Positions 5,489 through 31,447 of a stretch of DNA of 64,000 bases are shown here, piece by piece. This DNA is from an uncultured Planctomycetia bacterium (lineage in GTDB: Bacteria; Planctomycetota; Planctomycetia; Pirellulales; Thermoguttaceae). Location of the stretch: positions 271,278 to 335,277 of the forward strand of contig CAWDRV010000004.1 in the NCBI GenBank assembly GCA_963804825.1. Reading direction: 5' to 3'. The notes under the pieces were generated by a model. It was not told the DNA's origin. It did not search any database and worked only from the letters and a program-made list of their open reading frames with translations. A program made the position numbers and the translations under genes. How positions within the stretch are numbered: position 1 is the first letter of the stretch; every line of letters begins with the position of its first letter.

Positions 5489-7268
5489 TTAGCGATTGAA
5501 GATCCGGCGCCACAACGTTGTGCGGGCCTCGGCCGGCTCCGGCTCCGCCACCAGCGGCGCCTCGCTGAGCGGCACGGTGACCGAGGGAGCCCGCGGCATC
5601 GTCAGCGGTGGGCTCGGCGGCATCGTCAGCGGTGGACCGATCGCCGGCGCCTTGTCCTGGCCATCTCCTCGCTGCGGTTGGGCCCCATCGAGCCAATGAG
5701 TGAAGCGGCCAATTTGCGTCGCCAGCTCGGCGACGCTGTTTTGCAGTTCGGCGCTGAAGTGCTGCGGCGCGCCTTGGAGCTGTTGCTGCGACAACTCGTG
5801 GAAGAGCCTGCCGTGCTCGATCAAGGTCTGCTGCAATTGAACGACGGCCTGCTGGAAGGCCTGGGCCTCGGAGGCCATGCCTTGCTGAGAGCGGTGCCAG
5901 GTGGCGGTGGCGGCGCCGGCCTTCTCGAAGAACTCGGCCATGCTGCGGCCGATCTGGTCGAGTTTTTGGAATCGCGTGGCGTCGCCCTGGGCGATCTGCT
6001 GCTGCATGCGCGGCCGCGGCCTCGAAATCGCCGCCGATGAGCTGACCGAGCTGCCCGATCTGCGCCTGCCACTGCGCCAGCCACCGCTGGTGCTCCTGGA
6101 AGGCCGAATCGAGGGCGTCGCGCACCACCTCCGGGAGCTTCTCATGCTGGTAGCCGAGCCGCTCCTCGGCCATGCGACGCAGCAGCGACTCGTTGGAAAA
6201 TCCCTCGATGCGGTCCAGCATCCCGTACTCGGTTTTTCGCAGCCCTTCGACGGGAAAGACCATCACGATGGCCATCACCAGGGCCAGCAAGGTCGCATCG
6301 AAGGCCGTGGCCAGTCCCTTGGTGACTTCGCCCAGCCCCTTGAGCAGGTTTTCGCCCTTGGGGGCGGCGGGTGCCGGCGGGGCGCTGCGATCAGCCGGGG
6401 CGGTCGCCGCCGGCGCCGAACCGGAGTCGCCGAGGCTGGTGTGCAGGCCGGCCACGGCGGCACTGATGCCCAGCACCGTGCCGACGAAACCCAGCAGCGG
6501 GATGCTCCAGATGAACGTGCGGAGCAGGCTGTAACCGGAATCGACGCCGGAGGCGTCCAGATCGGCCTGCTTGGCCAGGTACTCCTGGACTTCGGGGACG
6601 CTGTTTCGCGATTTGAAGTGTTCCAGGGCGCCGCGGATGCGTCGGCCGAGAATGCTCTGGCGTTCGGCCGGCGGCAGCCCGTCCAGGTGCCCGAGAAACT
6701 GATCAACGTTCGTGGGAGTGATTTGCAGGCCGATGTCCAGGGGGATCAGCTTCAGTTCCAGCTCGGCGTAGCTGAGTTGCTTCTTGACCGCGATGTACTT
6801 CAGTGCCAACAACGACATTCCCCAGCAGACGACCATGGTAATGCAGATCTGCATCGGGCCACGGCGCGCGAACAGGTCGGCAATGAACCATCCCGATCCA
6901 GGTTTTTCCACCATCACGGGCCTGCCCGACTGATCGACAAGACCGTTGCCCTCCTGGTCCTTTTGCTGAACCAGTTCGCTCCGCAGCGGCATAAAGAGGC
7001 CCAGGTAGAGCACCGCGGTGAGGACCACTCCGATCGCCGCGCCCCACCAGGCGGGGACGCTCGTGGAGCTGAGGCGGGCATCGGTTTCGCGGCGGAGGCC
7101 GGCCGCCGCCGTGGGATGAAGGGTGGCAAACGACTCGTCACCTACGGGGGCCTTGATTTCCACCAGGGCTTTGCAGCCCGGGCAGCGGCCTTTGCGTCCG
7201 ATGTACTCGGAGGAGGCTCGCATCCGGTTGTTGCAGTGCGGACAGACGACGGTGATCGCGGTTGCCAT
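5489..7268 (-). CDS. MotA/TolQ/ExbB-family proton-channel protein with N-terminal zinc ribbon (frameshift near 6000)
   Basis: CPHCNNR...CPGCK zinc ribbon. TM helices ICITMVVCWGMSLLALKYI, FIWSIPLLGFVGTVLGI, LLALVMAIVMVFPVEGL are typical of MotA/ExbB. The C-terminal part continues in ORF 5489..6145 (MQQQIAQGDATRF...). RBS GGGAGAAAG sits before the ATG at 7268. Confidence 0.6.
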
Positions 7269-7372: not shown

Positions 7373-9330
7373 TCACGGCGGGGAGACCGGCTCCTTCTCC
7401 TCGCGGACGCAGCGGAACCCCACGCCCTTGTCCGTCACCTGTCCGCCGTAAAGGAATTGGTTGGAGCCGATGCCCCACACGTATCCCAGCGACTTGAACT
7501 CCCCCCCCTTGGCGGCGCGCCACATCTGTCCATCGACCTCGGTCCATCCGCGCAGGAACTCGCTCGCGTTGCCGACCATGTTGTACACCATGAAGGGGCT
7601 TACGTCCTTGGGCGTATCATACACGGAGGAAGTCGAGGGGAACTTGGGGTTGTCCTTAACGTTGTGCGCGCCGCATCGTATTTGTCACCCCAGGGGAACA
7701 ACCAATCGTGATCCCCGCGGTACGCCCGCATCCACTGCTCGCGGGTGGGCAGGTCCTTTCCGGCCCAGCGTGCATACGCTTCCGCGTCCTCGTAACGGAC
7801 GCCAACGACCGGGTGGTCGTCCTTGCCGGGAGGCGGGCTGCCGTCGGTCCAGTCGGCCGGCGCGGCCCGGCCGGTCTCCCGGATGAACTTGGCGTACTGG
7901 GCATTGGTGACTTCATACTGATCGATCCAGAACGCCGGCACGTGGACGCGCCGTTGCGGCTCCTGGCGGAAGAACTTCAAAAAGGCCTCCACCGACTGGT
8001 CGTTCATGTAGTCGGAAAGGCAGTTCCGCACCTTGAGTTCGCTGTTTCCTAGACGGGCGAAGCCGACCTCGACGAAGACCATCCCAGCAGGGGCCTCACG
8101 AACGCGAACGTCCGGGGGAGGCGGGGGCGGAAACGCCTTCTGCCCCATCGTGAAGTTCAAGACCAATCCCACGATGAGGAAGGCGGCCAGGATGGCCCCG
8201 CCGGCGTACAGCCACGGCAGTTTCTCCCGCAACCATTCCTTGCGCGTCTCGAGGGGGAGCAGCTCGATGACGGGAAGTTGCCCTTCCCGATGCGTCTCCA
8301 CCGAGGCGGCCGACAACTCGTCGGTTCTCCAGATCGAGTCGCTCCGAGCCGGGGCGGCGCGGATCAAGTCTCGCAGCTCGTTGGCCATGGCCAAGGCGGT
8401 GGGAAAGCGGGATTCGGCTCGCCGCGCCATCGCCCGGGCAAGAAACTCCTGGACCTTGTGGGGCACCTCGATATTGATCCGGTCCACGGGGGCCGGCGGG
8501 ATGCCGCTGGAAATCGCTCCCACGACTTCCCCGACGGTCCCCTCGAACGGCGGCTTTGCCGTGAGGAGACAGTACATCGTGCCGCCGAGCGAAAAAATAT
8601 CGCTCCGCCGGTCCAAGGGCTTGCCCTGGCATTGTTCCGGTGACATGAAAGCAGGGGTACCCACGACCTGTCCCGTGCGCGTCAAGCTCGAGTCGCTCTC
8701 CTCGCGCACCAGGCCGAAATCCATCAGCAGGACGCGGAGGTCCGAGGAGAGCATAATGTTGGTCGGCTTGACATCGCGATGGACCAGCCCCTGATTATGG
8801 ACTGCATGAAGCCCCCGGGCCACCAACTGGATGATGCGGGCGGCGGAGCGCCAGGGGAGGGGACCACCTTGGTCCTGGACAACCTGAAGGAGGTTTCTGC
8901 CCTGGATGTACTGCATAATGATGAAGTACAAGCCGCCTTCTTCCCCCACGTCGTGGATAACCACCACGTTGGGGTGTTCGATTCGCGAACAGACGCGTGC
9001 CTCCTTGAGAAACCGCTCGATATGTTCGCGTGCGCCGAGGTTGGGGGGGAGGATTCTCAGCGCCACCGGTTTTTCCAGCGCGAGGTGCTGGGCCAGATAG
9101 ACCTCACCCATCCCGCCCCGCCCGAGCAACCGGACGATTCGGCAGCCTCGAATGACCTGCCCGCTGGCCAGAGTCTGTGTTCGTTGACGGACTTCCACGT
9201 TCTTCGCCCGCACGAGATCGCGTCGGCAGATCGTCACCGTGGGAAGCGGCGGCGCTGGGCGACCGATCCGACAAAAGGGGTCCCTCGTTTGCAGGAAGGC
9301 CAGCTTACCATGGGAGCAAATTTCTTGCAA
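7373..9330 (-). CDS. Ser/Thr protein kinase fused to FGE-sulfatase (formylglycine-generating enzyme-like) domain; frameshift near 7630
   Basis: Kinase motifs GRGGMGEVYLA, HRDVKPTNIML, DFG, SPE. The C-terminal FGE domain (PAFWIDQYEVTNAQY...) continues in ORF 7373..7624 (GNASEFL...GFRCV). The listed start at 9330 is TTG; the true start is probably a few codons downstream. Confidence 0.8.
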
Positions 9331-22267: not shown

Positions 22268-22299
22268 CAATAAAAACGCCCGGAGCGGTGGCAACCGTT

Positions 22300-23330
22300 C
22301 CGGGCAACCACAACCGGGCTTTCGCCCAATTGCGGGTTCGATGCTTGCATTATAGCGAAAGCCCCCAACAAAGGGAAGGCTTCGCTATGTGCAACGTCGT
22401 GAAACCGGAGCGCCAAAAGCAGGTGCTCCACATGCTGGTGGAGGGCAGTTCAATCCGATCCACGTCGCGCCTTACGGGAATCCATCGGGATACCATTGGT
22501 CGGCTGTTGGTCCGTTTCGGGCAAGGGTGCCGTCGTTTGCTCGATAACCGGTTGCAGGGATTGGCTTTACGGCACCTGGAATTGGACGAAATGTGGACTT
22601 TCGTGCTCAAAAAGGAGGGGCGATTGACCCTGGAAGAGCGCCAGGAGCGTTACGACATTGGGGATATTTACCTATGGACCGCCCTTGACCAGAAAACCAA
22701 GCTGATTCCCGCCTTTTTGGTTGGGAAACGGTCGGCAGACAACGCAAGGCGGTTTCTGCGGGACGTGGCCGGCCGGCTGCGGTTCCCCACGGCCCATGAC
22801 TCCGATCCGCACCACTACCAGCCGGGCGGGTATTCGCTGGTAGTGCAGATTTCCAGCGACGCCTTCCGGGCCTATCCCGAAGCGGTTGACTTGGCTTTCG
22901 GCCCCTATTGCAAATACGGCCAGATCATCAAGAACTATCGCAACGCCGACCAGCCGGGGCGCTATGCTCCCCCGGAGATGGTCGAGACTGAGCGCCGGAG
23001 GGTGTTCGCGTTGAGAGAAGACGAGGAGCGGACAATATGCACGTCCCACGTGGAGCGCCACAACTTGACCGTCCGCACCTTGTTGCGGCGGTTCACTCGC
23101 CTTGCTCTGGGATTCTCCAAAAAACTAGAGAACCTCGAGGCGGCGTGCGCGGCGTTTCTGGCGTACTACAACTTCGTTTGGCGAACCAGATACCCGGATG
23201 ACAGCGGGAAGGCAGGGCGGTATCGTCCGCCGGCCGCGGTCATGGCAGGCGTGGTTTCCAACCTCTGGACATTCACAGACCTGTTCAATCGTGTAATGGG
23301 GTAGAACCGGGCTGTTGTGGAGGCATACAT
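22300..23330 (+). mobile_element. IS1-family insertion sequence
   Basis: Contains an IS1-type transposase. Imperfect terminal inverted repeats around CCACAACCGGGCT (about 22307-22325) and CCGGGCTGTTGTGG (about 23300-23325). Confidence 0.55.
22386..23304 (+). CDS. IS1-family transposase (InsAB-like single ORF)
   Basis: N-terminal HTH IRSTSRLTGIHRDTIGRLL (InsA-like). The C-terminal HVERHNLTVRTLLRRFTRLALGFSKKLENLEAACAAFLAYYNF parallels IS1 InsB [41 protein letters not shown]. Confidence 0.7.
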
Positions 23331-24258: not shown

Positions 24259-24796
24259 GAATTCGCCCTTCGTTCTGCGGGTCGGCCCGCGCCGGCTGGG
24301 TTGTCCAGGTGGCCACCCGGCACAACCGTCCGGACGATTCTGCTCCACCCGTTTCTATCCCAGCATGCCCGCCATTTTACCCTCGGCGATGGCGTTTACC
24401 AGCCAGCGGGCGTAACGGCGGCTGCAGGGAGACGGACGGCAATCACTGGCCGCCCCGGGCAAAGGCACGACCTTCTCCATGGGTCACCGGCTCGCACCGT
24501 GGAAAATTTTCCGCGGGGCGGGAATAATTTCGCCCGTTCGAGCGTCTTATAGATAAGGCCGCCGTGCTCGGGAAAATTTCGTGAACTTCTGTAGCATCGG
24601 CGGCGTCTATACGATATAATAGCGATAGTGCGGCCCTCGGCGGGCTGCCAGTTTGAGAGAAAGAGCCATGACTTCGATACGGCTAAGTCACAAACAGCGA
24701 AGATGGATGGGTACATTCGCCGCCCAAGCGGCGAATACGCTCCCGTCCTATCCATTGCGCGTTTGACACCGGCCGTACCTATTCCGAAGAATACCG

Positions 24797-24832
24797 AAAG
24801 CCCGGTGTCATAACGACATCGGGCTTTTTTTA
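24797..24832 (+). terminator. Rho-independent terminator (AAAGCCCGGTG...CATCGGGC + TTTTTTTATT)
   Basis: GC stem agcccg/cgggct followed by a run of 7 T. Lies about 150 nt upstream of the first tRNA of the array. Confidence 0.6.
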
Positions 24833-24985
24833 TTGGGTCGGTAGCTGAGATGCGGGCACCGACCGAAGGTTGGTCGGCGGCGGCCTGAAAAGCCGCAGAC
24901 GCGGATTCGAGCACCGCCCGACCCACTGCGTGAAACGTGCGCGCGAACCCCTTGCTTCAACTGCGTGGAAGGTGCGCGCTGAGAT

Positions 24986-25059
24986 GGCCTGTTCGTCTAT
25001 CGGTTCGAGGACACCGGCCCTTCAAGCCGGGAAGACGGGTTCGACTCCCGTACGGGCCG
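24986..25059 (+). tRNA. tRNA-Glu(UUC), non-canonical (C33)
   Basis: Acceptor ggcctgt/acgggcc. The D-arm TTCGTCTATCGG resembles bacterial tRNA-Glu. Anticodon stem ccggc/gccgg with loop CCTTCAA. T-arm acggg-TTCGACT-cccgt. Confidence 0.7.
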
Positions 25060-25066
25060 CTGTGGG

Positions 25067-25160
25067 CAGAACGTAGCGAAGCCTGGTTATCGCGCGGGCA
25101 CCGATGCGCAGCATTGGTCCGGGGACCAGGAGACCGGCGGTTCAAATCCGCCCGTTCTGA
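25067..25160 (+). tRNA. tRNA-like, 94 nt, Pro-type D-loop, hairpin repeat where anticodon arm should be (probable pseudo-tRNA)
   Basis: Acceptor cagaacg/cgttctg, T-arm ggcgg-TTCAAAT-ccgcc, D-loop AAGCCTGGTTAT. The interior carries GGGCACCGATGCGCAGCATTGGTCC (array hairpin repeat). No standard anticodon arm. Confidence 0.35.
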
Positions 25161-25168
25161 CTGGATGA

Positions 25169-25241
25169 CGGGATGTAGGGTAGCGGCGAACCCGTGTGTT
25201 CTGGGAACACAAGATCGCAGGTTCGAGTCCTGCCATCCCGA
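25169..25241 (+). tRNA. tRNA-Pro(UGG), non-canonical (C33)
   Basis: Acceptor cgggatg/catcccg. Anticodon stem tgtgt/acaca with loop TCTGGGA. T-arm gcagg-TTCGAGT-cctgc. Confidence 0.65.
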
Positions 25242-25267
25242 CCTGACGGACAACGACGTTGGCACAT

Positions 25268-25339
25268 GGTAGTCGAGGGCCGGTTGCCCAAACCCGGCTG
25301 ATAACCGAGTGGCGCTGAGTTCGACTCTCAGGGCTACCA
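25268..25339 (+). tRNA. tRNA-Ile(GAU) (short D-loop; possible indel)
   Basis: Acceptor ggtagtc/ggctacc. Anticodon loop CTGATAA. T-arm ctgag-TTCGACT-ctcag. The D-arm looks truncated. Confidence 0.6.
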
Positions 25340-25405
25340 CTGGAAAGTGAGGAGCATGACCATGAAGCAAACCCGATGGAAACGCATACGCCCGGCCTGC
25401 ATTTC

Positions 25406-25477
25406 GGGGTCGTGGTGTAACGGCAGCACTCCGGACTTTTAATCCGGTAGGTGAAGGTTCGAGTCCTTTCGGCCCCA
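25406..25477 (+). tRNA. tRNA-Lys(UUU)
   Basis: Acceptor ggggtcg/cggcccc. Anticodon stem ccgga/tccgg with loop CTTTTAA. T-arm gaagg-TTCGAGT-ccttt. Confidence 0.8.
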
Positions 25478-25487
25478 CTCGCCGTGA

Positions 25488-25576
25488 CGGCGCGTAGCTC
25501 AATGGTCAGAGCGGGCCTCTTATAAGGGTCAGGACCACCTGCGGTGGTGCCCAGGGTTCGACTCCCTCCGCGCCCA
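25488..25576 (+). tRNA. tRNA-like with long variable hairpin, anticodon loop CTTATAA (UAU?); anticodon and acceptor ambiguous
   Basis: Canonical D-arm TAGCTCAATGGTCAGAGC. Anticodon stem ggcct/gggtc needs two G-U pairs. Variable hairpin ACCACCTGCGGTGGT. T-loop TTCGACT. The 5' acceptor pairing is imperfect. Confidence 0.4.
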
Positions 25577-25602
25577 CTGCTGCGCGTAACGAAGCAGACG
25601 AC

Positions 25603-25675
25603 GGGACCAAGGTGCTAGCGGCAGCACAGCGGATTCTTAATCCGCCAGGTGAGGGTTCAAGTCCCTCTGGTCCCA
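25603..25675 (+). tRNA. tRNA-Lys(CUU)
   Basis: Acceptor gggacca/tggtccc. D-arm gtgc/gcac. Anticodon stem gcgga/tccgc with loop TTCTTAA. T-arm gaggg-TTCAAGT-ccctc. Confidence 0.8.
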
Positions 25676-25690
25676 CTGATGTGAGCACTG

Positions 25691-25790
25691 GTCCGGGCAC
25701 CGACGCGCAGCGTTGGTCGTGGCGAGGATACCGCACCCGTAATGCGGCGACGAGGGTTCGAGTCCGGGCACCGACGCGAAGCGTTGGTCT
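25691..25790 (+). pseudogene. Pseudo-tRNA: Thr(CGU)-like anticodon arm (loop CCCGTAA, C33) flanked by two copies of the hairpin repeat, T-arm broken
   Basis: A direct repeat GTCCGGGCACCGACGCG[C/A]AGCGTTGGTC sits at both ends. Anticodon stem ccgca/tgcgg. The sequence around GGTTCGAGTCC cannot form a 5-bp T-stem. Confidence 0.35.
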
Positions 25791-25827
25791 GGTGCTCCTG
25801 TTGTTTGACAATTCGGCACACCACGAC

Positions 25828-25917
25828 GCGCCCATGGGGCACCGTCGCGAAGCGATGGTCGCGGCAGCCTGCTGCCTTGCCATGGCAGAAGTGCGGGTTC
25901 GACTCCCGCTGGGCGCT
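25828..25917 (+). tRNA. tRNA-Gly(GCC) with expanded D-region containing the hairpin repeat
   Basis: Acceptor gcgccca/tgggcgc. Anticodon stem ctgcc/ggcag with loop TTGCCAT. T-arm gcggg-TTCGACT-cccgc. 34 nt lie between the acceptor and the anticodon arm, including GGGGCACCGTCGCGAAGCGATGGTC. Confidence 0.5.
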
Positions 25918-25925
25918 TTTCAGCG

Positions 25926-26000
25926 CAGGACGTAGGAAAGCCTGGTATTCCGCGTGCCCCGGGCAGCACGAGATCGCGGGTTCAAATCCCGCCGTCCTGA
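25926..26000 (+). tRNA. tRNA-Pro(CGG)-like, 8-nt anticodon loop CCCGGGCA / C33
   Basis: Acceptor caggacg/cgtcctg. D-loop AAGCCTGGTAT. Anticodon stem cgtgc/gcacg. T-arm gcggg-TTCAAAT-cccgc. Confidence 0.5.
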
Positions 26001-26007
26001 CTTTGAT

Positions 26008-26082
26008 TGCGGTGGGGCCTGTGTTGGCACGGGCGGGCGCTTGTTAAGCGTCATGTCGCAGGTTCGATTCCTGCCACCGCAG
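26008..26082 (+). tRNA. tRNA-Asn(GUU)
   Basis: Acceptor tgcggtg/caccgca. Anticodon stem ggcgc/gcgtc with loop TTGTTAA. Variable loop ATGTC. T-arm gcagg-TTCGATT-cctgc. Confidence 0.7.
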
Positions 26083-26096
26083 CCTGTTGAGAGAAC

Positions 26097-26218
26097 GGAA
26101 GGGCAAGCCGGACCACCGCTTCGCGGCGGTGCCCGCGATGGCAGCCGCCGGGCACCATGCGAAGCATGGTCAGCGGCCGAGCGATGAGCCTTGAGGGTTC
26201 GACTCCCTCTCCTTCCGC
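26097..26218 (+). tRNA. Ser-type tRNA-like element, 122 nt with two hairpin insertions (probable pseudo/unusual tRNA)
   Basis: Acceptor ggaaggg/tccttcc (Ser-like), T-arm gaggg-TTCGACT-ccctc. The interior contains CACCGCTTCGCGGCGGTG (UUCG hairpin) and GGGCACCATGCGAAGCATGGTC (array repeat). Confidence 0.3.
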
Positions 26219-26223
26219 CTGCT

Positions 26224-26312
26224 GTGCCCTTGGCCGGCCGGCAGAGGTGCCAGCCTTCCAAGCTGGCGCGACCAACCTTCGGTCGGTGCCCGGTTCGACT
26301 CCCACAGGGCAC
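26224..26312 (+). tRNA. tRNA-Gly(UCC)-like with reverse-orientation hairpin repeat in variable region, defective T-arm (pseudo)
   Basis: Acceptor gtgccct/agggcac. Anticodon stem ccagc/gctgg with loop CTTCCAA, followed by GCGCGACCAACCTTCGGTCGGTGCCC. Relative to the paralog at 27439 it lacks about 18 nt, so the T-stem cannot pair. Confidence 0.35.
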
Positions 26313-26327
26313 TCTCAGCGATGACGA

Positions 26328-26398
26328 TCGGGGATCAGCTAGTGGCAGGCTTCCTGGCTTTGAACCAGGCAACGGAGGTTCAACCCCTCCTCCCCGAG
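26328..26398 (+). tRNA. tRNA-Gln(UUG)
   Basis: Acceptor tcgggga/tccccga (U1-A72 as in bacterial Gln). Anticodon stem cctgg/ccagg with loop CTTTGAA. T-arm ggagg-TTCAACC-cctcc. Confidence 0.75.
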
Positions 26399-26435
26399 CT
26401 TGCAGCCGGCGAGCCGTGTCTCGTCACGCAAACGA

Positions 26436-26506
26436 TGCGGAGTCATCTAACGGTAGGATGAGACTCTCTGAAGGTCTTCATGTTGGTTCAACTCCAGCCT
26501 CCGCAG
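26436..26506 (+). tRNA. tRNA-Gln(CUG)
   Basis: Acceptor tgcggag/ctccgca. D-stem catc/gatg. Anticodon stem agact/ggtct with loop CTCTGAA. T-arm gttgg-TTCAACT-ccagc. Confidence 0.7.
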
Positions 26507-26515
26507 CTTGATAAC

Positions 26516-26601
26516 GGAAGCCATCCGGCCGGATGAGGAGCCTGTCTTGAAAACAGGTGGCGGCCCGACGCCGCTTGTGGGTTCGAGTCCCACGGCTTCC
26601 G
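26516..26601 (+). tRNA. tRNA-Ser(UGA)
   Basis: Acceptor ggaagcc/ggcttcc. Anticodon stem cctgt/acagg with loop CTTGAAA. Long variable arm TGGCGGCCCGACGCCGCT. T-arm gtggg-TTCGAGT-cccac. Confidence 0.75.
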
Positions 26602-26606
26602 CCTTT

Positions 26607-26677
26607 GGGGTCATGGTCCAACAGGACGACGCCAGCTCCGCACGCTGGAGATCCGGGTGCGACTCCCGGTGACTCCA
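26607..26677 (+). tRNA. tRNA-Ala(CGC), non-canonical (C33, T-loop TGCGACT), G3-U70 present
   Basis: Acceptor ggggtca/tgactcc gives G3-U70 and discriminator A. Anticodon stem ccagc/gctgg with loop TCCGCAC. T-arm ccggg-TGCGACT-cccgg. Confidence 0.65.
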
Positions 26678-26689
26678 CTGTAGAAACAT

Positions 26690-26761
26690 AGCCCCGTGGT
26701 CCAACGGCAACGACGCTTGGTCCACACCCAGGAAACGATGGTTCGACTCCATCCGGGGCTA
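26690..26761 (+). tRNA. tRNA-Val(CAC), non-canonical (C33)
   Basis: Acceptor agccccg/cggggct. D-arm GTCCAACGGCAACGAC. Anticodon stem cttgg/ccagg with loop TCCACAC. T-arm gatgg-TTCGACT-ccatc. Confidence 0.65.
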
Positions 26762-26765
26762 CTGC

Positions 26766-26839
26766 GGCTCGGTAGGCAACCGGCAGACCACCTTGGCTTA
26801 GAACCAGGGATGCTGTGGGTTCGACTCCCACCTGAGCCA
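26766..26839 (+). tRNA. tRNA with anticodon UAG (Leu) on a class-I body (short variable loop), non-canonical
   Basis: Acceptor ggctcgg/ctgagcc, discriminator A. Anticodon stem cttgg/ccagg with loop CTTAGAA. Variable loop GATGC. T-arm gtggg-TTCGACT-cccac. Confidence 0.55.
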
Positions 26840-26853
26840 CTGTGAACGACCCT

Positions 26854-26928
26854 GCCCTCGTGGAGCAGCCTGGAGTGCTCGCCTGCCTGTCACGCAGGAG
26901 ATCGCGGGTCCAAATCCCGTCGAGGGCG
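26854..26928 (+). tRNA. tRNA-Asp(GUC) (T-loop TCCAAAT, C54)
   Basis: Acceptor gccctcg/cgagggc, discriminator G. D-stem gagc/gctc. Anticodon stem cctgc/gcagg with loop CTGTCAC. T-arm gcggg-TCCAAAT-cccgt. Confidence 0.7.
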
Positions 26929-26942
26929 CTTTCAAGTATGAC

Positions 26943-27017
26943 GGCGCGGTACGCAAATCGGCAAAGCGGTCAAGCTCAAACCTTGGTGATCTGCGGGTTC
27001 GACTCCCGCCTGTGCCA
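26943..27017 (+). tRNA. tRNA with anticodon CAA (Leu) on a class-I body, non-canonical
   Basis: Acceptor ggcgcgg/ctgtgcc. D-arm CGCAAATCGGCAAAGCG. Anticodon stem tcaag/cttgg with loop CTCAAAC. Short variable loop. T-arm gcggg-TTCGACT-cccgc. Confidence 0.5.
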
Positions 27018-27028
27018 CTGGAAACCAT

Positions 27029-27112
27029 GCGTCAACTGGGCATCGGCGAGCCCAACTGCCCGTAAAACAGCCAGCCCGAAAGGCTATGCAGGTTCGACTC
27101 CTGCCCGGCGCA
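27029..27112 (+). tRNA. Class-II-like tRNA element, anticodon arm degenerate (loop CCCGTAAAA), acceptor mismatched (probable pseudo/chimera)
   Basis: D-arm GGGCATCGGCGAGCCC. Variable hairpin AGCCCGAAAGGCT. T-arm gcagg-TTCGACT-cctgc. The 5' gcgtcaa does not fully pair with the 3' ccggcgc. Confidence 0.3.
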
Positions 27113-27122
27113 CTGACAACAT

Positions 27123-27195
27123 GGCCCGTTCGTCTATCGGCCAAGGACACCGGCCCCTCACGCCGGAAAGGCGGGTTCAATTCCCGCACGGGCTG
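27123..27195 (+). tRNA. tRNA-Glu(CUC), non-canonical (C33)
   Basis: Paralog of 24986. Acceptor ggcccgt/acgggct. Anticodon stem ccggc/gccgg with loop CCCTCAC. T-arm gcggg-TTCAATT-cccgc. Confidence 0.65.
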
Positions 27196-27202
27196 CTGAC
27201 AT

Positions 27203-27284
27203 GACCAAGTGGCGCAACTGGTAGACGCGCGACGCTCAGAACGTCGTGCCGCAAGGCATGGGAGTTCGAATCTCCCCTTGGTCA
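27203..27284 (+). tRNA. tRNA-Leu(CAG), class II
   Basis: Acceptor gaccaag/cttggtc, discriminator A. D-arm GGCGCAACTGGTAGACGCG. Anticodon stem cgacg/cgtcg with loop CTCAGAA. Variable hairpin TGCCGCAAGGCAT. T-arm gggag-TTCGAAT-ctccc. Confidence 0.75.
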
Positions 27285-27295
27285 CTGAGGAATTG

Positions 27296-27362
27296 CAGGC
27301 GCGGCAGGTGCCCAACTGGCTCCCATAAGGCCGGTGCGCCCGGCTCGATACCGGGGCCTGCA
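27296..27362 (+). tRNA. Degenerate tRNA-like element, anticodon loop CCCATAA (CAU, C33)
   Basis: Acceptor tgcaggc/gcctgca. T-arm cccgg-CTCGATA-ccggg. The interior is only 38 nt, with a 4-bp anticodon stem ggct/ggcc. Confidence 0.3.
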
Positions 27363-27364
27363 AC

Positions 27365-27429
27365 TGCGGGTGGGCCAGTGCTCAGCCGGGCCCCATAAGC
27401 CTGGACCGCCGGGCGCAACACCCGGACCC
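27365..27429 (+). tRNA. Degenerate tRNA-like element, anticodon loop CCCATAA (CAU, C33), 1-72 mismatch
   Basis: T-arm ccggg-CGCAACA-cccgg. Acceptor tgcgggt/acccgcc has a T1xC72 mismatch. Anticodon stem gggc/gcct. Confidence 0.25.
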
Positions 27430-27438
27430 GCCACTTGC

Positions 27439-27530
27439 GACCGGGTACGCAAATTGGCATAGCGGCGCGACCAACCTTCGGTCGGTGCCCGAGAGCCTCG
27501 TGCCTGTGGGTTCGACTCCCACCTCGGTCA
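27439..27530 (+). tRNA. Class-II-like tRNA with reverse-orientation hairpin repeat occupying the anticodon-arm position (loop AACCTTC)
   Basis: Acceptor gaccggg/ctcggtc. D-arm CGCAAATTGGCATAGCG. The anticodon-position segment CGACC-AACCTTC-GGTCG is part of GCGCGACCAACCTTCGGTCGGTGCCC. Variable arm GAGAGCCTCGTGCC. T-arm gtggg-TTCGACT-cccac. Confidence 0.4.
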
Positions 27531-27544
27531 CTGACAAGGAAAAC

Positions 27545-27617
27545 GATCCCGTGGTCCAACGGCGAAGACGCCTGGGTGACAACCAGGAAAGCGATGGTTC
27601 GACTCCATCCGGGATCA
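27545..27617 (+). tRNA. tRNA-Val(GAC)
   Basis: Acceptor gatcccg/cgggatc. D-arm GTCCAACGGCGAAGAC. Anticodon stem cctgg/ccagg with loop GTGACAA. T-arm gatgg-TTCGACT-ccatc. Confidence 0.7.
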
Positions 27618-27711
27618 TGTTGGAAAAACGGTCTGTAGGTGTTTCGGCAGCACACCTCCTCGGTAAAGAGGAAGACCCGGTTCATCTCCGGGACGGACCT
27701 CTTGATGATGC

Positions 27712-27782
27712 GGGCCGCTGGTCCAACGGGAAGACGCTTGGTTTGCACCCAGGCAATCGGGGTTCGATTCCCCGGCGGTCCA
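27712..27782 (+). tRNA. tRNA-Ala(UGC)
   Basis: Acceptor gggccgc/gcggtcc with G3-U70, discriminator A. Anticodon stem cttgg/ccagg with loop TTTGCAC. T-arm cgggg-TTCGATT-ccccg. Confidence 0.8.
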
Positions 27783-27791
27783 CTGAAATAC

Positions 27792-27879
27792 GGAAGGTAG
27801 CCGGATACCGGGTTGCCGGGCCGCCCCGCTAAGGCGGTTCTCCCCTGTGGAGATGAGGGTTCAACTCCCTTGCCTTCCG
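27792..27879 (+). tRNA. tRNA-Ser(GCU), class II, non-canonical (C33)
   Basis: Acceptor ggaaggt/gccttcc, discriminator G. Anticodon stem ccgcc/ggcgg with loop CCGCTAA. Variable hairpin TCTCC-CCTGT-GGAGA. T-arm gaggg-TTCAACT-ccctt. Confidence 0.65.
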
Positions 27880-27898
27880 CTTGGTGTGTCGGGTTGAC

Positions 27899-27969
27899 GC
27901 CCCGATAGTGAAACGGAAATCATGCCTCGCTTCTAACGAGGCGATCCAGGTTCAACTCCTGGTCGGGGT
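27899..27969 (+). tRNA. tRNA-Arg(UCU)
   Basis: Acceptor gccccga/tcggggt. Anticodon stem cctcg/cgagg with loop CTTCTAA. T-arm ccagg-TTCAACT-cctgg. Confidence 0.75.
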
Positions 27970-27990
27970 GCTGGCGGAGACAGTTATATA

Positions 27991-28066
27991 TGGTGTCCGT
28001 GGTGTAGCGGTTCCTGCACGCCTGGCTGTGAACCAGGAGGTAGGGGTTCGATTCCCCTCGGATACC
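27991..28066 (+). tRNA. tRNA-His(GUG) with encoded G-1 and C73
   Basis: G at -1, acceptor gtgtccg/cggatac, discriminator C. Anticodon stem cctgg/ccagg with loop CTGTGAA. T-arm agggg-TTCGATT-cccct. Confidence 0.8.
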
Positions 28067-28096
28067 CCTGGGGAGAATTGTGGGAAGGAGAACGTT

Positions 28097-28693
28097 ATGG
28101 TCACCAAGGTACTCCAGCGGCCGACGCTGGTGCTGAACCGCAACTGGCAGCCGGTGAACGTCGCCACCGTGACGCGGGCACTGGTGCTGCTGTGGAACGA
28201 GTCTGCGCGCGTCGTGGACCCGGCCGACTACCAGCTCTACACCTGGGCCGACTGGGCCAAGCTGCGGCCGGGCAACGGCGAGGACTGCATCCAGGCGGTG
28301 AGGTTCAAGCTGCGGGTGCCGGAAGTGGTCGCACTGAGCGGCTACGATCGGCTGCCGACGGCCCACGTGACCTTCAGCCGCCGGAACATTTTCAAGCGGG
28401 ACCACTACACCTGCCAGTACTGCGGCGCCCAGCCGGGCAGCGATGAACTGACGCTGGACCACGTCCTGCCGCGTTCCCAGGGTGGCGTGTCGGGTTGGGG
28501 GAACTGCGTGCTGGCCTGTGTGGCCTGCAACAAGCGGAAGGCCGATCGGACACCGGAGCAAGCACGGATGCACCTGCGCCGTAAGCCGGTCCGGCCGACG
28601 TGGAAGCCGCTCTATGCGGATCACGAGGTGCGGATCGAGAGCTGGTCGAAGTTCGTCAGCGAAGCGTACTGGAACGTAAGGCTTGAGACCTGA
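28097..28693 (+). CDS. HNH endonuclease
   Basis: ATG at 28097 with RBS GGAAGGAGAA. HNH motif CQYCGAQPGSDELTLDHVLPRSQGG...NCVLACVACNKRK. 198 aa. Embedded in the tRNA array; the larger listed ORF 27881..28693 overlaps tRNAs and is spurious. Confidence 0.8.
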   Translation: MVTKVLQRPTLVLNRNWQPVNVATVTRALVLLWNESARVVDPADYQLYTWADWAKLRPGNGEDCIQAVRFKLRVPEVVALSGYDRLPTAHVTFSRRNIFKRDHYTCQYCGAQPGSDELTLDHVLPRSQGGVSGWGNCVLACVACNKRKADRTPEQARMHLRRKPVRPTWKPLYADHEVRIESWSKFVSEAYWNVRLET

Positions 28694-28736
28694 GACCTGA
28701 GACCTGAGACCTGAGGCTTGAGGCTTGAGTGGTGAG
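28681..28736. repeat. Tandem heptad repeats (GCTTGAG/ACCTGAG x8)
   Basis: gcttgag acctgag acctgag acctgag acctgag gcttgag gcttgag tggtgag overlaps the HNH stop codon. An inverted complement array lies at 29117-29196. Confidence 0.7.
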
Positions 28737-28740
28737 GAAG

Positions 28741-29121
28741 TTAGGCACTTCGGCGAAGAGACCGCACTAGACCTGCCAGGACCTTTGCGGTCTCGTCCGC
28801 CTGTTGTGCGACTTTCTGGGCGGCATCGTCCGGCACGTATCCTAGGCGATGAGCGACCGTAAGCTGGTACTGGACCTCACGCGATGAACCAAACGCCATG
28901 TCGAGAAAACGAATGTAGTCGGCCTGCGAGTGCCTGGCGCAGCCCTCGACGATATTCGAGGCAATGGAGATTGCGGCACGACGCAATTGGATGGTCAGTC
29001 CGAACTGCTCCTGCCTAGGAAATGTCTTGGTAATTGAATAGATCGACAGAACAAGATTGTCGGCTAACTCGAACGCACGGAGTTTTCGATGGTCTCGCAT
29101 CGCTGTATTGTGCCACTTCAA
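28741..29121 (-). CDS. Four-helix-bundle protein (23S rRNA intervening-sequence protein family, TIGR02436-like)
   Basis: MRDHRKLRAFELADNLVLSIYSITKTFPRQEQFGLTIQLRRAAISIASNIVEGCARHSQADYIRFLDMAFGSSREVQYQL matches the conserved family pattern (FGLTSQLRRAA.SI..NIAEG). The start may be the Met at 29100 rather than 29121. Confidence 0.7.
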   Translation of the reverse strand: MKWHNTAMRDHRKLRAFELADNLVLSIYSITKTFPRQEQFGLTIQLRRAAISIASNIVEGCARHSQADYIRFLDMAFGSSREVQYQLTVAHRLGYVPDDAAQKVAQQADETAKVLAGLVRSLRRSA

Positions 29122-29196
29122 GCCTCACAACTCAAGCCTCAGGCCCCAGGCCTCAAGCCTAAGGCCCCAGGCCTCAAGCCTAAGGCCTCAGGCCTA
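29117..29196. repeat. Tandem heptad/21-bp repeats (CTCAAGC/CTAAGGC/CCCAGGC), inverted complement of the 28681-28736 array
   Basis: caagcctcacaactcaagcctcaggccccaggcctcaagcctaaggccccaggcctcaagcctaaggcctcaggcct. Together with the left array it can form a long imperfect stem around the 4HB gene. Confidence 0.65.
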
Positions 29197-29200
29197 TTAC

Positions 29201-29270
29201 AGGAGTGTCCTCCTGGGAGAGGAAGCGGCCTCCAAAGCCGCTGCACGGGGTTCGAATCCTCGCGCTCCTG
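29201..29270 (+). tRNA. tRNA-Trp(CCA)
   Basis: Acceptor aggagtg/cgctcct, discriminator G. Anticodon stem gcggc/gccgc with loop CTCCAAA. T-arm cgggg-TTCGAAT-cctcg. Confidence 0.75.
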
Positions 29271-29273
29271 CTT

Positions 29274-29345
29274 GCCGACGTGGCCGAAAGGCAAGGCGGC
29301 GGTCCTGTAAACCGCATGATGCTGGTTCGAATCCAGTCGTCGGCT
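29274..29345 (+). tRNA. tRNA-Thr(UGU), non-canonical (C33)
   Basis: Acceptor gccgacg/cgtcggc. D-arm GCCGAAAGGCAAGGC. Anticodon stem gcggt/accgc with loop CCTGTAA. T-arm gctgg-TTCGAAT-ccagt. Confidence 0.6.
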
Positions 29346-29356
29346 TTGGTACGTTT

Positions 29357-29428
29357 GTCCCGATGGTGTAGCGGATCGCACGGGGCTCTCCTAAGGCCCT
29401 GGCCCTGGTTCGACTCCAGGTCGGGACA
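29357..29428 (+). tRNA. tRNA-Arg(CCU)
   Basis: Acceptor gtcccga/tcgggac. D-arm GTGTAGCGGATCGCAC. Anticodon stem gggct/ggccc with loop CTCCTAA. T-arm cctgg-TTCGACT-ccagg. Confidence 0.75.
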
Positions 29429-29434
29429 CTATTC

Positions 29435-29506
29435 GTCTCGATGGTGTAGCGGATCGCATAGGACCCTCCGAAGGTCCAGGTCCAGGTTCGACTCCTGGTC
29501 GAGACA
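29435..29506 (+). tRNA. tRNA-Arg(CCG)
   Basis: Acceptor gtctcga/tcgagac. Anticodon stem ggacc/ggtcc with loop CTCCGAA. T-arm ccagg-TTCGACT-cctgg. Confidence 0.75.
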
Positions 29507-29509
29507 TTT

Positions 29510-29582
29510 GCCCTGCGAGTGTGCCGGATTAGCACGGCAGACTACGAATCTGCAAGACGGGGTTCGATTCCTCGGCGGGGCG
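29510..29582 (+). tRNA. tRNA-Arg(ACG)
   Basis: Acceptor gccctgc/gcggggc, discriminator G. Anticodon stem gcaga/tctgc with loop CTACGAA. T-arm cgggg-TTCGATT-cctcg. Confidence 0.75.
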
Positions 29583-29593
29583 CTGAAACGAAT

Positions 29594-29666
29594 GTCCTCG
29601 GAGTGTGCCGGATAAGCACGCGACCGTGCGAAGGTCGTAGACCAGGTCCAATTCCTGGCGAGGACG
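29594..29666 (+). tRNA. Arg-type tRNA body with anticodon arm CGACC-GTGCGAA-GGTCG (GCG; stem identical to the hairpin-repeat core), T-loop TCCAATT
   Basis: Paralog of 29510 (same D-arm GTGTGCCGGATAAGCAC). Acceptor gtcctcg/cgaggac. Purine at position 32, anticodon GCG. Confidence 0.45.
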
Positions 29667-29690
29667 CTTGACAATTCGGCGCTGGAGCCA
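29667..29690. repeat. Direct repeat DR1 (CTTGACAATTCGGCGCTGGAGCCA): promoter-like TTGACA plus a copy of the first 13 nt of tRNA-Cys
   Basis: 21 of 24 positions identical to 30734-30757, which is the true 5' end of tRNA-Cys. The two repeats flank a 1.04-kb lower-GC insert. Confidence 0.6.
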
Positions 29691-29859
29691 CAGCATAGCA
29701 TTTGGGCGGCGGTCGCCCATCGCAGATGTAAGCGGGCCAACTGGCGCACCCCACCACAATTCGGTGCGACAGCGCATCGTGTCGGGCCATAGCCCGCCCG
29801 AGAATGCGCTAATCTCACTGTGGATAACAAGGGATTCCCAGTCAACGCGGAGAAATGCA

Positions 29860-30738
29860 ATGGCCATCAATTACCAACGAGCGAGTGAACTGCTACTAGA
29901 GACCCAACAAGCAATGCAGTGCGACGAAAGCACGCGTCTGTGCGAAGCGGTGGGCAAGTTGCTGGATGCGCGTCTATGTGGGGCTGATCCTTGGGACTGG
30001 CGCTACAACACCACGCATTGGGCATTGGATGTGGTCAATGTCTGTAAGGAGATCGGGTACAGCGTTGCATGGATGCGAGCGTTGGCTCGCTACTGCTCGG
30101 AGTCGGAGGAGCAGGATCGGCAATCCGTCGAGGGCCTCGTGTCGTATTATGCGGACAACGCTGCAACGAGGATCAGTTCGTGCCGTGACAAACTCGCGCT
30201 CCTTGCATGGTCGTATTATTGCCCATTCAACCCTGACAAGAAGGACGACGTCTTGAGTTTTGAGCAGGTTCACGCCCGATTGACCACCCCGCTTAGGTTC
30301 GGCCTCCACTTCAACGGTCACAATGAGTTCCTCGTCGAACTGAACAAGCTCCTGGGATCAGGCTTTGAAAGGGCTATTGCCTACCGACACAAAAAGGTAC
30401 ATCGCATGGAACCGCGCGTTATGATGCGTAAGCCCGAGGTCCCCGACCAACGATGTTACATGTTTGCGGTAACGACAGAAAAGGACGTTCGCGGATTCGA
30501 CGATAAGCTCAAGAAGATGTACCCAGATGATGGGTTTCGAGCAGAAGTCCGACAGGGGTGCTTCCTCGATGGCGTGCTTTTTGACCGGCGAGCGCCCGAG
30601 GAATTGCTCTGGCACTTCGAGGATTTCGACGGATTCACTTATCCTTGTTGGAAGAGTCTATGTGATGCGACCGCGGGCTCGTGCGAGATACTGTTACGTC
30701 GTGAACCAATGCTTTCAAAGGCTGGCCAAGGCACTTGA
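29860..30738 (+). CDS. Hypothetical protein (cargo of insertion within tRNA array; lower GC)
   Basis: ATG at 29860 with RBS GGAGAAA. 292 aa, no recognisable motifs. About 50% GC against about 65% for the flanks. Confidence 0.5.
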   Translation: MAINYQRASELLLETQQAMQCDESTRLCEAVGKLLDARLCGADPWDWRYNTTHWALDVVNVCKEIGYSVAWMRALARYCSESEEQDRQSVEGLVSYYADNAATRISSCRDKLALLAWSYYCPFNPDKKDDVLSFEQVHARLTTPLRFGLHFNGHNEFLVELNKLLGSGFERAIAYRHKKVHRMEPRVMMRKPEVPDQRCYMFAVTTEKDVRGFDDKLKKMYPDDGFRAEVRQGCFLDGVLFDRRAPEELLWHFEDFDGFTYPCWKSLCDATAGSCEILLRREPMLSKAGQGT

Positions 30739-30757
30739 CAACGTGGCGCTGGAGCCA
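30734..30757. repeat. Direct repeat DR2 (CTTGACAACGTGGCGCTGGAGCCA), overlaps 5' end of tRNA-Cys
   Basis: Matches DR1 at 29667-29690. Confidence 0.6.
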
Positions 30758-30816
30758 GACGGCACGGCGGCTGCCTGCAAAGCAGCTTCAAGTGGGTTCG
30801 ACTCCCACCGGCGCCT
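30745..30816 (+). tRNA. tRNA-Cys(GCA)
   Basis: Acceptor ggcgctg/cggcgcc, discriminator U. D-arm GCCAGACGGCACGGC. Anticodon stem gctgc/gcagc with loop CTGCAAA. T-arm gtggg-TTCGACT-cccac. Confidence 0.8.
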
Positions 30817-30927: not shown

Positions 30928-31000
30928 GCGAGGTTAGCTCAGTGGATAGAGCACCAGACCAATAATCTGGCTGTCGCGGGTTCGACTCCCGTACCAACAC
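30928..31000 (+). pseudogene. Pseudo-tRNA (canonical D-arm TAGCTCAGTGGATAGAGC, loop CCAATAA, 3' acceptor does not pair with 5' end)
   Basis: T-arm gcggg-TTCGACT-cccgt is followed by accaaca, but the 5' acceptor is gcgaggt. Anticodon stem ccaga/tctgg with A34 and C33. Confidence 0.35.
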
Positions 31001-31447
31001 CGCAGGCTAAACCCCTGCTCCAAACGGCCCGCGACCAACGCGGGGCGTTGGTGCCCGGCGGGCCAACGTGTGATCGGCCACCGGCGGCCGAGCGACCGAC
31101 GGCGCCGAGGACTCTGGGCATACTGCCTGTAAGGCAGCGCCCGGAGGAATCGACGCCCAAGGGAGCACACGGTTGTCCGGTGGCAGCACGGCCGAGTGCC
31201 ATGTAGTGCGTGGATACCGCTTCCGCCGGCCTCCGGCAAGCGGCAACGGATGCCTGGCGACTCGCCCCAGGGCTTTGCCCCTTCGGCGACCAGCCCGGCG
31301 GAAACTGCCGCACCGCCGCAGGCTATGCGGATGCTCAAACGACACTCCGCAGTTGTCCGTGTGATCGCCGCTGGCTCCGCCGCCCGACGGCTTTATGAAA
31401 CGCAGACAAGAGCGGCCCACGAAAGGCCGCAGGAAGGAAGGTGAAGG

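Follow-up and report, generated by a model that had tools for sequence, protein, structure and literature searches.

Two type I tRNALeu genes of a planctomycete tRNA array, probably functional and charged with leucine

The window analysed here, that is, the whole stretch of 64,000 nucleotides (nt) taken from contig CAWDRV010000004.1 of an uncultured Planctomycetia bacterium (positions 271,278 to 335,277), was found to contain a dense tRNA gene array on the forward strand. Two genes of this array, tRNA-Leu(UAG) at 26766-26839 and tRNA-Leu(CAA) at 26943-27017, were found to possess type I bodies without the long extra arm of bacterial tRNALeu, and they probably function, as members of an accessory array, as type I tRNALeu that are charged with leucine. 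Both are real tRNA genes. Their families are conserved and contain covarying helices, their bodies carry Leu anticodons only, and homologues are present in phage contigs and in L-arrays, the long, horizontally spread, supernumerary tRNA arrays with a conserved HNH gene that occur in phyla including Planctomycetes (PMC8421152, PMC4758250, PMC12803027). What is said below about charging with leucine, about expression and about the reason for the arm loss is inferred.

In the ARAGORN calls, tRNA-Leu(tag) covers 26766-26840 and tRNA-Leu(caa) covers 26943-27018, both on the forward strand. Rfam RF00005 matched both over model positions 1-71, with 41.7 bits (E ~2e-7 to 2e-6, 26766-26839) for the UAG tRNA and 49.8 bits (E ~1e-9 to 1e-8, 26943-27017) for the CAA tRNA; both matches are full-length and above the gathering score of 29 bits. 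The anticodon loops CUUAGAA (UAG tRNA) and CUCAAAC (CAA tRNA) are the loops that the first-pass annotation had read; each was found to contain 7 nt in canonical register, U33 and A37 being in place, and the alternative anticodon register that it had allowed for was thereby ruled out. A base-paired extra arm is missing from both tRNAs, so that they fall outside the class II architecture, and the earlier assignment of Leu anticodons to class I bodies was borne out. The variable region contained 5 nt (AUGCU) in the UAG tRNA and 6 nt (UGAUCU, with U48 as the last base) in the CAA tRNA; its shortness had been recognised correctly, and the length of 4-5 nt given at that time needed correction. The class II tRNA-Leu(CAG) at 27203-27284 (forward strand; ARAGORN and Rfam), which served as an internal comparison, was found to be canonical as claimed, with 82 nt and a variable arm of 13 nt, UGCCGCAAGGCAU. 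Both short genes depart from the textbook class II tRNALeu of bacteria and are rightly called atypical. A third short 'Leu(gag)' called by ARAGORN at 5854-5926 was rejected as a false positive, the Rfam tRNA model giving no match there even at E<=10.

The CAA tRNA was found to contain an acceptor stem of 7 bp followed by U8 and A9, a D stem of 3 bp (C10-G25, G11-C24, C12-G23) with an A13.A22 mismatch, a D loop of 11 nt (A14 A15 U16 C17 G18 G19 C20 A A A), an anticodon stem of 5 bp and a normal T arm. A G4.U69 pair was present in its acceptor stem. The UAG tRNA was found to contain U8, A14, G18G19 and U48 in the core, with C at position 15 and a D loop of 7 nt. Its D stem contained two Watson-Crick pairs only (G10-C25 and G11-C24) followed by C12.A23 and A13.G22, and its anticodon stem was unusual in having 6 bp (CCUUGG/CCAGGG). 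The discriminator A73 was present in both (A at 26839 in the UAG tRNA and A at 27017 in the CAA tRNA), and CCA was not encoded in the UAG gene.

Across the planctomycete arrays, the Leu tRNAs were found to measure 75-81 nt (CAA), 73-76 nt (UAG), 75-79 nt (GAG) and 74-76 nt (UAA), with Leu(CAG) nearly always at 83-86 nt. The short families reduce to two body types. Body A contained the D arm UACGC(A/C)AA..GG.A.AGCG and carried the anticodons CAA, GAG and UAA in these arrays, and body B contained UAGGCAA..GGCAGACCA followed by the 6-bp anticodon stem and carried UAG. The two genes of the window are consensus members of body A (CAA) and body B (UAG). The UAG gene was 100% identical to a gene in locus L005 (3233-3307; loci L001-L083 are the contigs fetched as encoding homologues of the array's HNH protein), though the HNH protein of that locus is only 85% identical.

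The helices of both families were found to be maintained. In the alignment of the CAA family (A1, 46 sequences) 98.5% of cells were standard-paired, with changes on both sides in 9 of the 20 pairs, and none of 500 shuffled controls reached the observed values. The alignment of the UAG family (A2, 20 sequences) contained 97.8% paired cells and both-side changes in 7 of 20 pairs; slid controls for A1 and A2 gave 0-3 such pairs. The oddities of the UAG body (C12.A23, A13.G22 and the 6-bp anticodon stem) were invariant in 20 genomes and recurred in viral contigs of 38-59% GC.

Some further features of the Leu families were observed beside these. A member of the class II Leu(CAG) family in L033 (5188-5262) was found with its variable arm cleanly deleted and a length of 75 nt, a natural conversion from class II to class I. 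The Leu(GAG) family (42 loci, e.g. L004 5281 and L001 9626) contained C33 in all members instead of the near-universal U33, in a loop of the form YCGAGAN on a covarying anticodon stem of 5 bp. Leu(GAG) with C33 was also present in virus Rctr197k (L089 7408) and in two IMG/VR contigs (L103 7902 and L105 643), and C33 was found in the window in the unit at 26607-26677 (loop UCCGCAC) and in the Tyr-like unit at 27028-27112 (loop CCGUAAA).

The anticodons carried by the two bodies point to leucine as the attached amino acid. The D-arm signature of body A was found in 100 of 1592 array tRNAs, 96 of them with a Leu anticodon and the other 4 with a hairpin insert. In arrays and viral contigs together, body A was represented by 107 intact copies (CAA 47, GAG 42, UAA 14, CAG 2 and UAG 2) and body B by 44 (UAG 27, CAA 5, CAG 5, GAG 4 and UAA 3), and a non-Leu anticodon was found on none of these ~150 intact copies. 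The anticodon switches that were seen (CAA to CAG, UAG to CAG, and a UAA body to UAG) all remained within Leu. Bodies that carry Leu anticodons only, from the UUR as well as the CUN box, are what a synthetase that disregards the anticodon and attaches leucine would be expected to leave. Two 'GTC' pattern matches in IMG/VR contigs were rejected as body members, since they contained no T arm and hence are not tRNAs.

The identity positions were likewise found to be conserved. Among 130 family members, U8 and A14 were present in all 130 and A73, U48 and C3:G70 in 128 each, and these five features are common to the short Leu families and the array's class II Leu. G18G19 was kept in the short families, and A15 was found in 106 of the 107 body A copies, whose D loop is built like that of E. 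coli tRNALeu. The identity set of E. coli leucyl-tRNA synthetase (LeuRS) consists of A73, A14, A15-U48, G18G19 and A20a and includes neither the long arm nor the anticodon (PMC9976931); beside A73, the window's CAA tRNA contained U8-A14, G18G19, A15-U48 and an A20a-type D loop. In Streptomyces coelicolor, a tRNALeu(CAA) that is naturally type I is leucylated by the single LeuRS of the cell (Fan et al. 2019, PMC6614811). Both precedents speak against the premise of the first-pass annotation that LeuRS needs the class II body.

As a proxy for isotype-specific scoring, a covariance model (R1) was built from 26 class II tRNALeu of host-type, array, plasmid and phage origin. On the window's array, R1 gave 92.9 bits for Leu(CAG) and ranked the gene at 26943 first (51.7 bits) and that at 26766 third (46.3 bits) among the class I tRNAs, with the limitation that columns of the anticodon loop and the CAG family of this very array are part of the model, which thus tilts somewhat to Leu anticodons. 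After subtraction of the generic Rfam score, these two genes gave the sole positive differences (+1.9 bits for 26943 and +4.6 bits for 26766), and 22 others lay between -7.5 and -31.7 bits.

Related tRNAs have been assayed in the trn operon of Anabaena, where, as reported (PMC8421152), 23 of 26 tRNAs could be detected and were found charged in vivo and the array tRNAs were inducible by translational stress. Since this operon contains four short Leu genes and only three tRNAs were undetected, at least one short Leu tRNA must have been charged.

Several points, together with the tilt of R1, weigh against the charging of the two tRNAs with leucine or against their use. The text of the Anabaena paper names neither the attached amino acid nor the three pseudogenes (PMC8421152). 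Other bacterial LeuRS that were tested fail on the Streptomyces type I tRNALeu without the Streptomyces LSD (PMC6614811), and in Aquifex the deletion of the arm mainly reduces affinity (PMC2377443), so that efficient charging by a planctomycete LeuRS is not guaranteed. Position 15 was variable across the UAG family, which together with the two mismatches of its D stem departs from the E. coli identity set. The D-arm sequence of body A was no more similar to class II Leu than to other isotypes, the architecture alone matching, and that of the UAG body gave a weak signal; the argument for leucine therefore rests on the architecture, the identity positions and R1. The array of the window is also partly decayed, with 11 copies of a hairpin element described below, so that not every member is in use.

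The most likely course of events can be outlined as follows. The short Leu tRNAs would be transcribed along with the array and CCA would be added post-transcriptionally. The host LeuRS would charge both with leucine, recognising A73 and the core (U8-A14, G18G19 and U48) and not the anticodon or an extra arm, and the CAA body would offer it A15 and the A20a-type D loop besides. The codons UUG and CUA/CUN would then be read as leucine. Both genes would take part in this as members of two conserved families of a horizontally spread L-array with its HNH gene. To our knowledge, LeuRS is the only synthetase for class II tRNAs in bacteria that tolerates the loss of the arm. In ten long open reading frames (ORFs) of the window, UUG made up 13% and CUA 4% of the Leu codons, which gives no sign that these codons are avoided.

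The loss of the arm may be neutral, a streamlining of tRNAs that belong to a mobile set, or it may be an adaptation. In the adaptive form, the type I Leu tRNAs of L-arrays and large phages would escape a defence or toxin nuclease, or another factor, that senses the extra arm, which we consider rather unlikely; Leu would then be the single class II isotype with a synthetase that permits such an escape. Eukaryotic Schlafen nucleases recognise type II tRNAs through the extra arm. In a more extreme version of the adaptive form, the bodies may be partly orthogonal to the host LeuRS and mischarged under stress.

A role other than ordinary decoding has to be weighed next, in which the tRNAs would mainly be decoys or spare substrates against tRNA-targeting nucleases, or non-ribosomal donors of leucine, and the short arm would serve that role. 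Such arrays have been proposed as anti-defence or stress-response sets (PMC12803027, PMC8421152 and PMC10264068), HEPN-type ORFs were found within arrays, and some family members contained a hairpin in place of the anticodon with the remaining body kept. In the viral array of L099 (an IMG/VR contig of 38% GC), which contains the same type I Leu bodies, an RtcB tRNA ligase gene was found at 7593-8789, and this fits a tRNA-repair or anti-nuclease role of such arrays. Both genes of the window, however, have kept the 7-nt loop, U33, A37 and the anticodon stem, a retention that implies constraint by decoding and not by charging, and array tRNAs of Anabaena were present in polysome fractions (PMC8421152). 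A main role outside decoding is accordingly held to be unlikely.

A missense function, in which a synthetase other than LeuRS would charge the class I bodies and another amino acid would be inserted at UUG and CUA, had been raised in the first-pass annotation and is disfavoured here. In its favour, the class II arm is absent from both tRNAs and the window's CAA copy contains G4.U69. Deliberately mistranslating bacterial tRNAs do exist, as with Streptomyces tRNAProA and ProRSx, and are counted in favour of such a function. In the Anabaena study, an aberrant acid-gel mobility of the operon's Phe and Ile tRNAs is given and misacylation is discussed, but mistranslation was not detected at the codon tested (PMC8421152). 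Only LeuRS, SerRS and AlaRS ignore the anticodon, and the other synthetases read anticodon bases that are absent from these tRNAs. SerRS depends on the long arm, and these tRNAs have A73 as discriminator and not the G73 of tRNASer. For AlaRS the G3:U70 pair is absent, its place being taken by C3:G70 in nearly all family members as given above; recognition through G4.U69 was rejected for the same reason and because this pair is not conserved, position 4-69 of the CAA family being A-U in 27, G-C in 14 and G-U in 4 sequences. With Leu anticodons from two codon boxes throughout the intact copies, which is to be expected only with leucine as the attached amino acid, and with A73, U8-A14, G18G19, U48 and C3:G70 kept, a missense function is quite improbable, and the short Leu tRNAs give no indication of an ambiguity in the genetic code.

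That the two genes are non-functional paralogs, decaying in a degenerating array, as had been offered alternatively and as damaged array members (e.g. the disrupted Leu(GAG) body at 27440-27530 and the hairpin copies), the weak Tyr-like unit at 27028-27112 and the poor D stem and modest Rfam score of the UAG tRNA could suggest, is highly improbable and was ruled out, because both genes fit the consensus of families that are conserved in dozens of genomes, the helices are kept through compensatory changes, the 'defects' of the UAG tRNA are invariant and also viral, and the UAG gene has remained identical to that of L005 despite the divergence of the HNH protein.

The array that contains the two type I tRNALeu genes was found to span 24835-30816 on the forward strand, with 35 of the 36 tRNA calls made by ARAGORN in the window lying within these 5,982 nt, all on the forward strand, and interrupted by two ORFs. 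It passes the L-array threshold (>=20 tRNA genes, >=2 per kb, one strand) and belongs to the known type called 'L-array' or 'tRNA array unit'. The GC content of the window was ~63%. An HNH endonuclease gene of 198 aa (28097-28693, forward strand; Pfam HNH_5/HNH) was present within the array after tRNA-His. Its homologues of 75-97% identity were found within arrays of metagenome-assembled genomes (MAGs) of Pirellulales, Thermoguttaceae and other Planctomycetia, and those of 30-41% identity beside tRNA arrays of Nostoc PCC 7120 (pCC7120delta), a Mycolicibacterium plasmid and many tRNA-rich phages. The 83 fetched loci contained tRNAs in 77 cases, with a maximum of 40 per locus, within 12.6 kb, and the same array was present in ~75 other Planctomycetia genomes. 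An exact-sequence search with the Hsp70-like protein of the window gave no match, and the organism was placed as a Pirellulales-like planctomycete by way of the HNH homologues. The gene order ..Arg(UCU)-His-HNH-Trp-Thr-Arg..Cys was common to the window and L001-L003. A Band_7 gene downstream of the array was shared with L002, which suggests a stable chromosomal array site in the planctomycete lineage. In L006 and L042, canonical class II Leu(CAA) and Leu(UAG) genes adjoin the array on the other strand, so that the Leu copies of the array are supernumerary at least in these two. When the array was compared by megablast with the plasmids of PLSDB and the phages of INPHARED, tRNA-arm matches of 40-60 nt only and no related record were obtained.

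A HEPN-like ORF was found at 29860-30738 (forward strand) between the Arg tRNAs and tRNA-Cys, with a weak Pfam match to HEPN_Cthe2314 (E 2e-5, below the gathering score), and L002 contained a HEPN_AbiV gene (2041-2871) at the matching position. The stretch 29690-30722 of the window was without counterpart in its closest relative, L004 (CAWDSU010000008.1, HNH 97% identical), and the region of the HEPN-like ORF is therefore regarded as a variable cargo slot inside the array. L004 was deposited as a 'Methanoregulaceae archaeon' MAG, yet the contig contains a planctomycete-type array, so that an error of binning or labelling is probable. A consensus scan found a promoter-like site (TTGACA-18-AAGAAT) directly upstream of the first array tRNA, with a GC-rich hairpin of 14 bp and a T run immediately after it (24763-24828, forward strand), which is a possible candidate for an attenuator or conditional terminator of the whole array. 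The array is preceded, at a distance of 1.5 kb, by an IS1-like transposase ORF (DDE_Tnp_IS1, HTH) at 22288-23304, which lies in a region (20-24 kb) with a lower GC content of 56%.

The hairpin element mentioned above is 19-23 nt long and was found to have the form 5'-GACCA-[3-4 bp stem]-T(G/T/A)C-[stem']-C/T-GGTGCC. Of 92 hairpin-forming copies, 86 were located within the 332 kb of array spans, and the 434 kb outside contained none. The element was present in both orientations (48/42), with covariation in the inner stems (CCGC/GCGG, ACGC/GCGT, ACC/GGT and TGC/GCA). The 11 copies of the window are located at 24855-24875, 25097-25119, 25533-25551, 25696-25718, 25767-25789, 25838-25860, 26111-26133, 26151-26171, 26270-26290, 27469-27489 and 31033-31055, and further copies were found in 35 other loci (e.g. 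L001 9221, L003 8226 and L032 4630). The element occupies the D loop, the anticodon loop or the variable region of array tRNAs and often replaces 4-5 nt; at a recurrent junction right after U33 the anticodon is lost, and in the variable region a class-II-like extra arm results. The copy at 27468-27489 (22 nt) disrupts a type I body of the Leu(GAG) family at 27440-27530 (forward strand), which ARAGORN miscalls as Val(aac) with an intron. In pairwise alignment with the intact copy of L004 (5281-5355), this unit was identical save for AGGT (nt 29-32, anticodon stem) replaced by CGACCAACCTTCGGTCGGTGCC, and the disruption is recent. No matching Rfam family or paper was found for the hairpin element. 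Of all features of the locus it has the least explanation so far, and it may be the most interesting.

Further tRNA-like units were found in and near the array. Two adjacent units at 27290-27436, conserved with L004, contained CAU at the anticodon position (loops CCCAUAA), aberrant D arms and the T loops CUCGAUA and CGCAACA; they were called neither by ARAGORN nor by the Rfam tRNA model and gave a weak match to Tymo_tRNA-like, and an ordinary tRNA-Met was not found in the window's array. A conserved unit of the form GGTTAGCTCAG..GG.AGAGCACCAGA-[7-nt loop]-TCTGGCTGTCGCGGGTTCGA.TCCCGTACC, with a poorly paired acceptor stem, was present 1-2 kb downstream of the HNH gene, at 30932-31000 in the window and at L018 3322, L030 7075, L031 7239, L033 8124, L057 7058, L058 7540, L059 2501, L065 7332, L074 7966, L075 6461 and L080 7493. 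The triplet of its anticodon loop varies almost genome by genome, with AAT in the window and ATG, GAT, AAG, CAA, CAG, GAG, TAA, TGA, TTA or CGT elsewhere. Those 'GGTTAGCTCAG..AGAGCACCAGA' units that have Leu anticodons were rejected as a Leu family in view of the many different loop triplets.

The array type, its occurrence in Planctomycetes, its link with an HNH gene and the existence of bacterial type I tRNALeu are already published, and the Anabaena homologues have been assayed. A systematic presence of type I tRNALeu in L-arrays and phage tRNA sets was not found stated in the literature, and this generalisation may be new. Bacterial tRNALeu is described in textbooks as class II; here, an accessory lineage of arrays and phages, which extends over Planctomycetota, Cyanobacteria and viral contigs with a GC content of 38-66%, contains type I tRNALeu with as many as five anticodons. 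These tRNAs are natural test substrates for how a bacterial LeuRS manages without the extra arm, and they raise the testable idea that the arm loss lets mobile tRNA sets evade tRNA-directed defences. In annotation, such genes should not be flagged as pseudogenes or isotype mismatches.

Among known systems, the tRNALeu of animal mitochondria is alike in being type I and in that A73 and A14 suffice for its recognition in place of a long arm (PMC9976931). It is unlike the tRNAs described here in being organellar, with a dedicated LeuRS and degenerate cores, and no homology is implied. The type I tRNALeu of S. coelicolor has a short variable loop, coexists with type II tRNALeu and shares one LeuRS with it. 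It is, in contrast, a chromosomal housekeeping isoacceptor outside any mobile array; type I is restricted there to CAA, whereas four of five isoacceptors are type I in the planctomycete arrays, and the Streptomyces system, compared here by description, relies on the LSD of LeuRS and on C74 rather than A73.

The published L-arrays and tRNA array units (Tran et al. 2016, PMC4758250; Santamaria-Gomez et al. 2021; M. avium linear plasmids, PMC12803027) resemble the window's array in tRNA density and in the HNH gene. Unlike it, the arrays of Mycolicibacterium (85 nt) and Acidiphilium (82-84 nt) have kept class II Leu, and the hairpin element of the planctomycete arrays was not seen in the reference arrays that were checked, from cyanobacteria, actinobacteria and phages. 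Short Leu tRNAs were also found in virus Rctr197k, in Synechococcus phage S-CBWM1 and in IMG/VR contigs (38-66% GC).

The closest parallel to the window is the trn operon of Anabaena/Nostoc PCC 7120, an L-array on plasmid pCC7120delta (Santamaria-Gomez et al. 2021). It differs in belonging to Cyanobacteria and not to Planctomycetota, in GC content, in the encoding of CCA in some copies and in that class II Leu(CAG) was not found there, and no tRNA in it obviously corresponds to the UAG body of the window, in which the anticodon stem has 6 bp and the D stem is mismatched. The available text of the Anabaena paper makes no mention of the short arm (PMC8421152). The Leu tRNAs of this operon (caa, tag, gag and taa) were nevertheless found to measure 75-78 nt and to contain A73 and a D stem of 3 bp followed by an 11-nt CAAUUGGCAGA-type loop, the gag copy having a defective T arm. 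The Anabaena array is thus alike in its short Leu tRNAs without the extra arm, in the same design of the D arm and in an adjacent HNH gene of the same family, whose product is 34% identical to that of the window.

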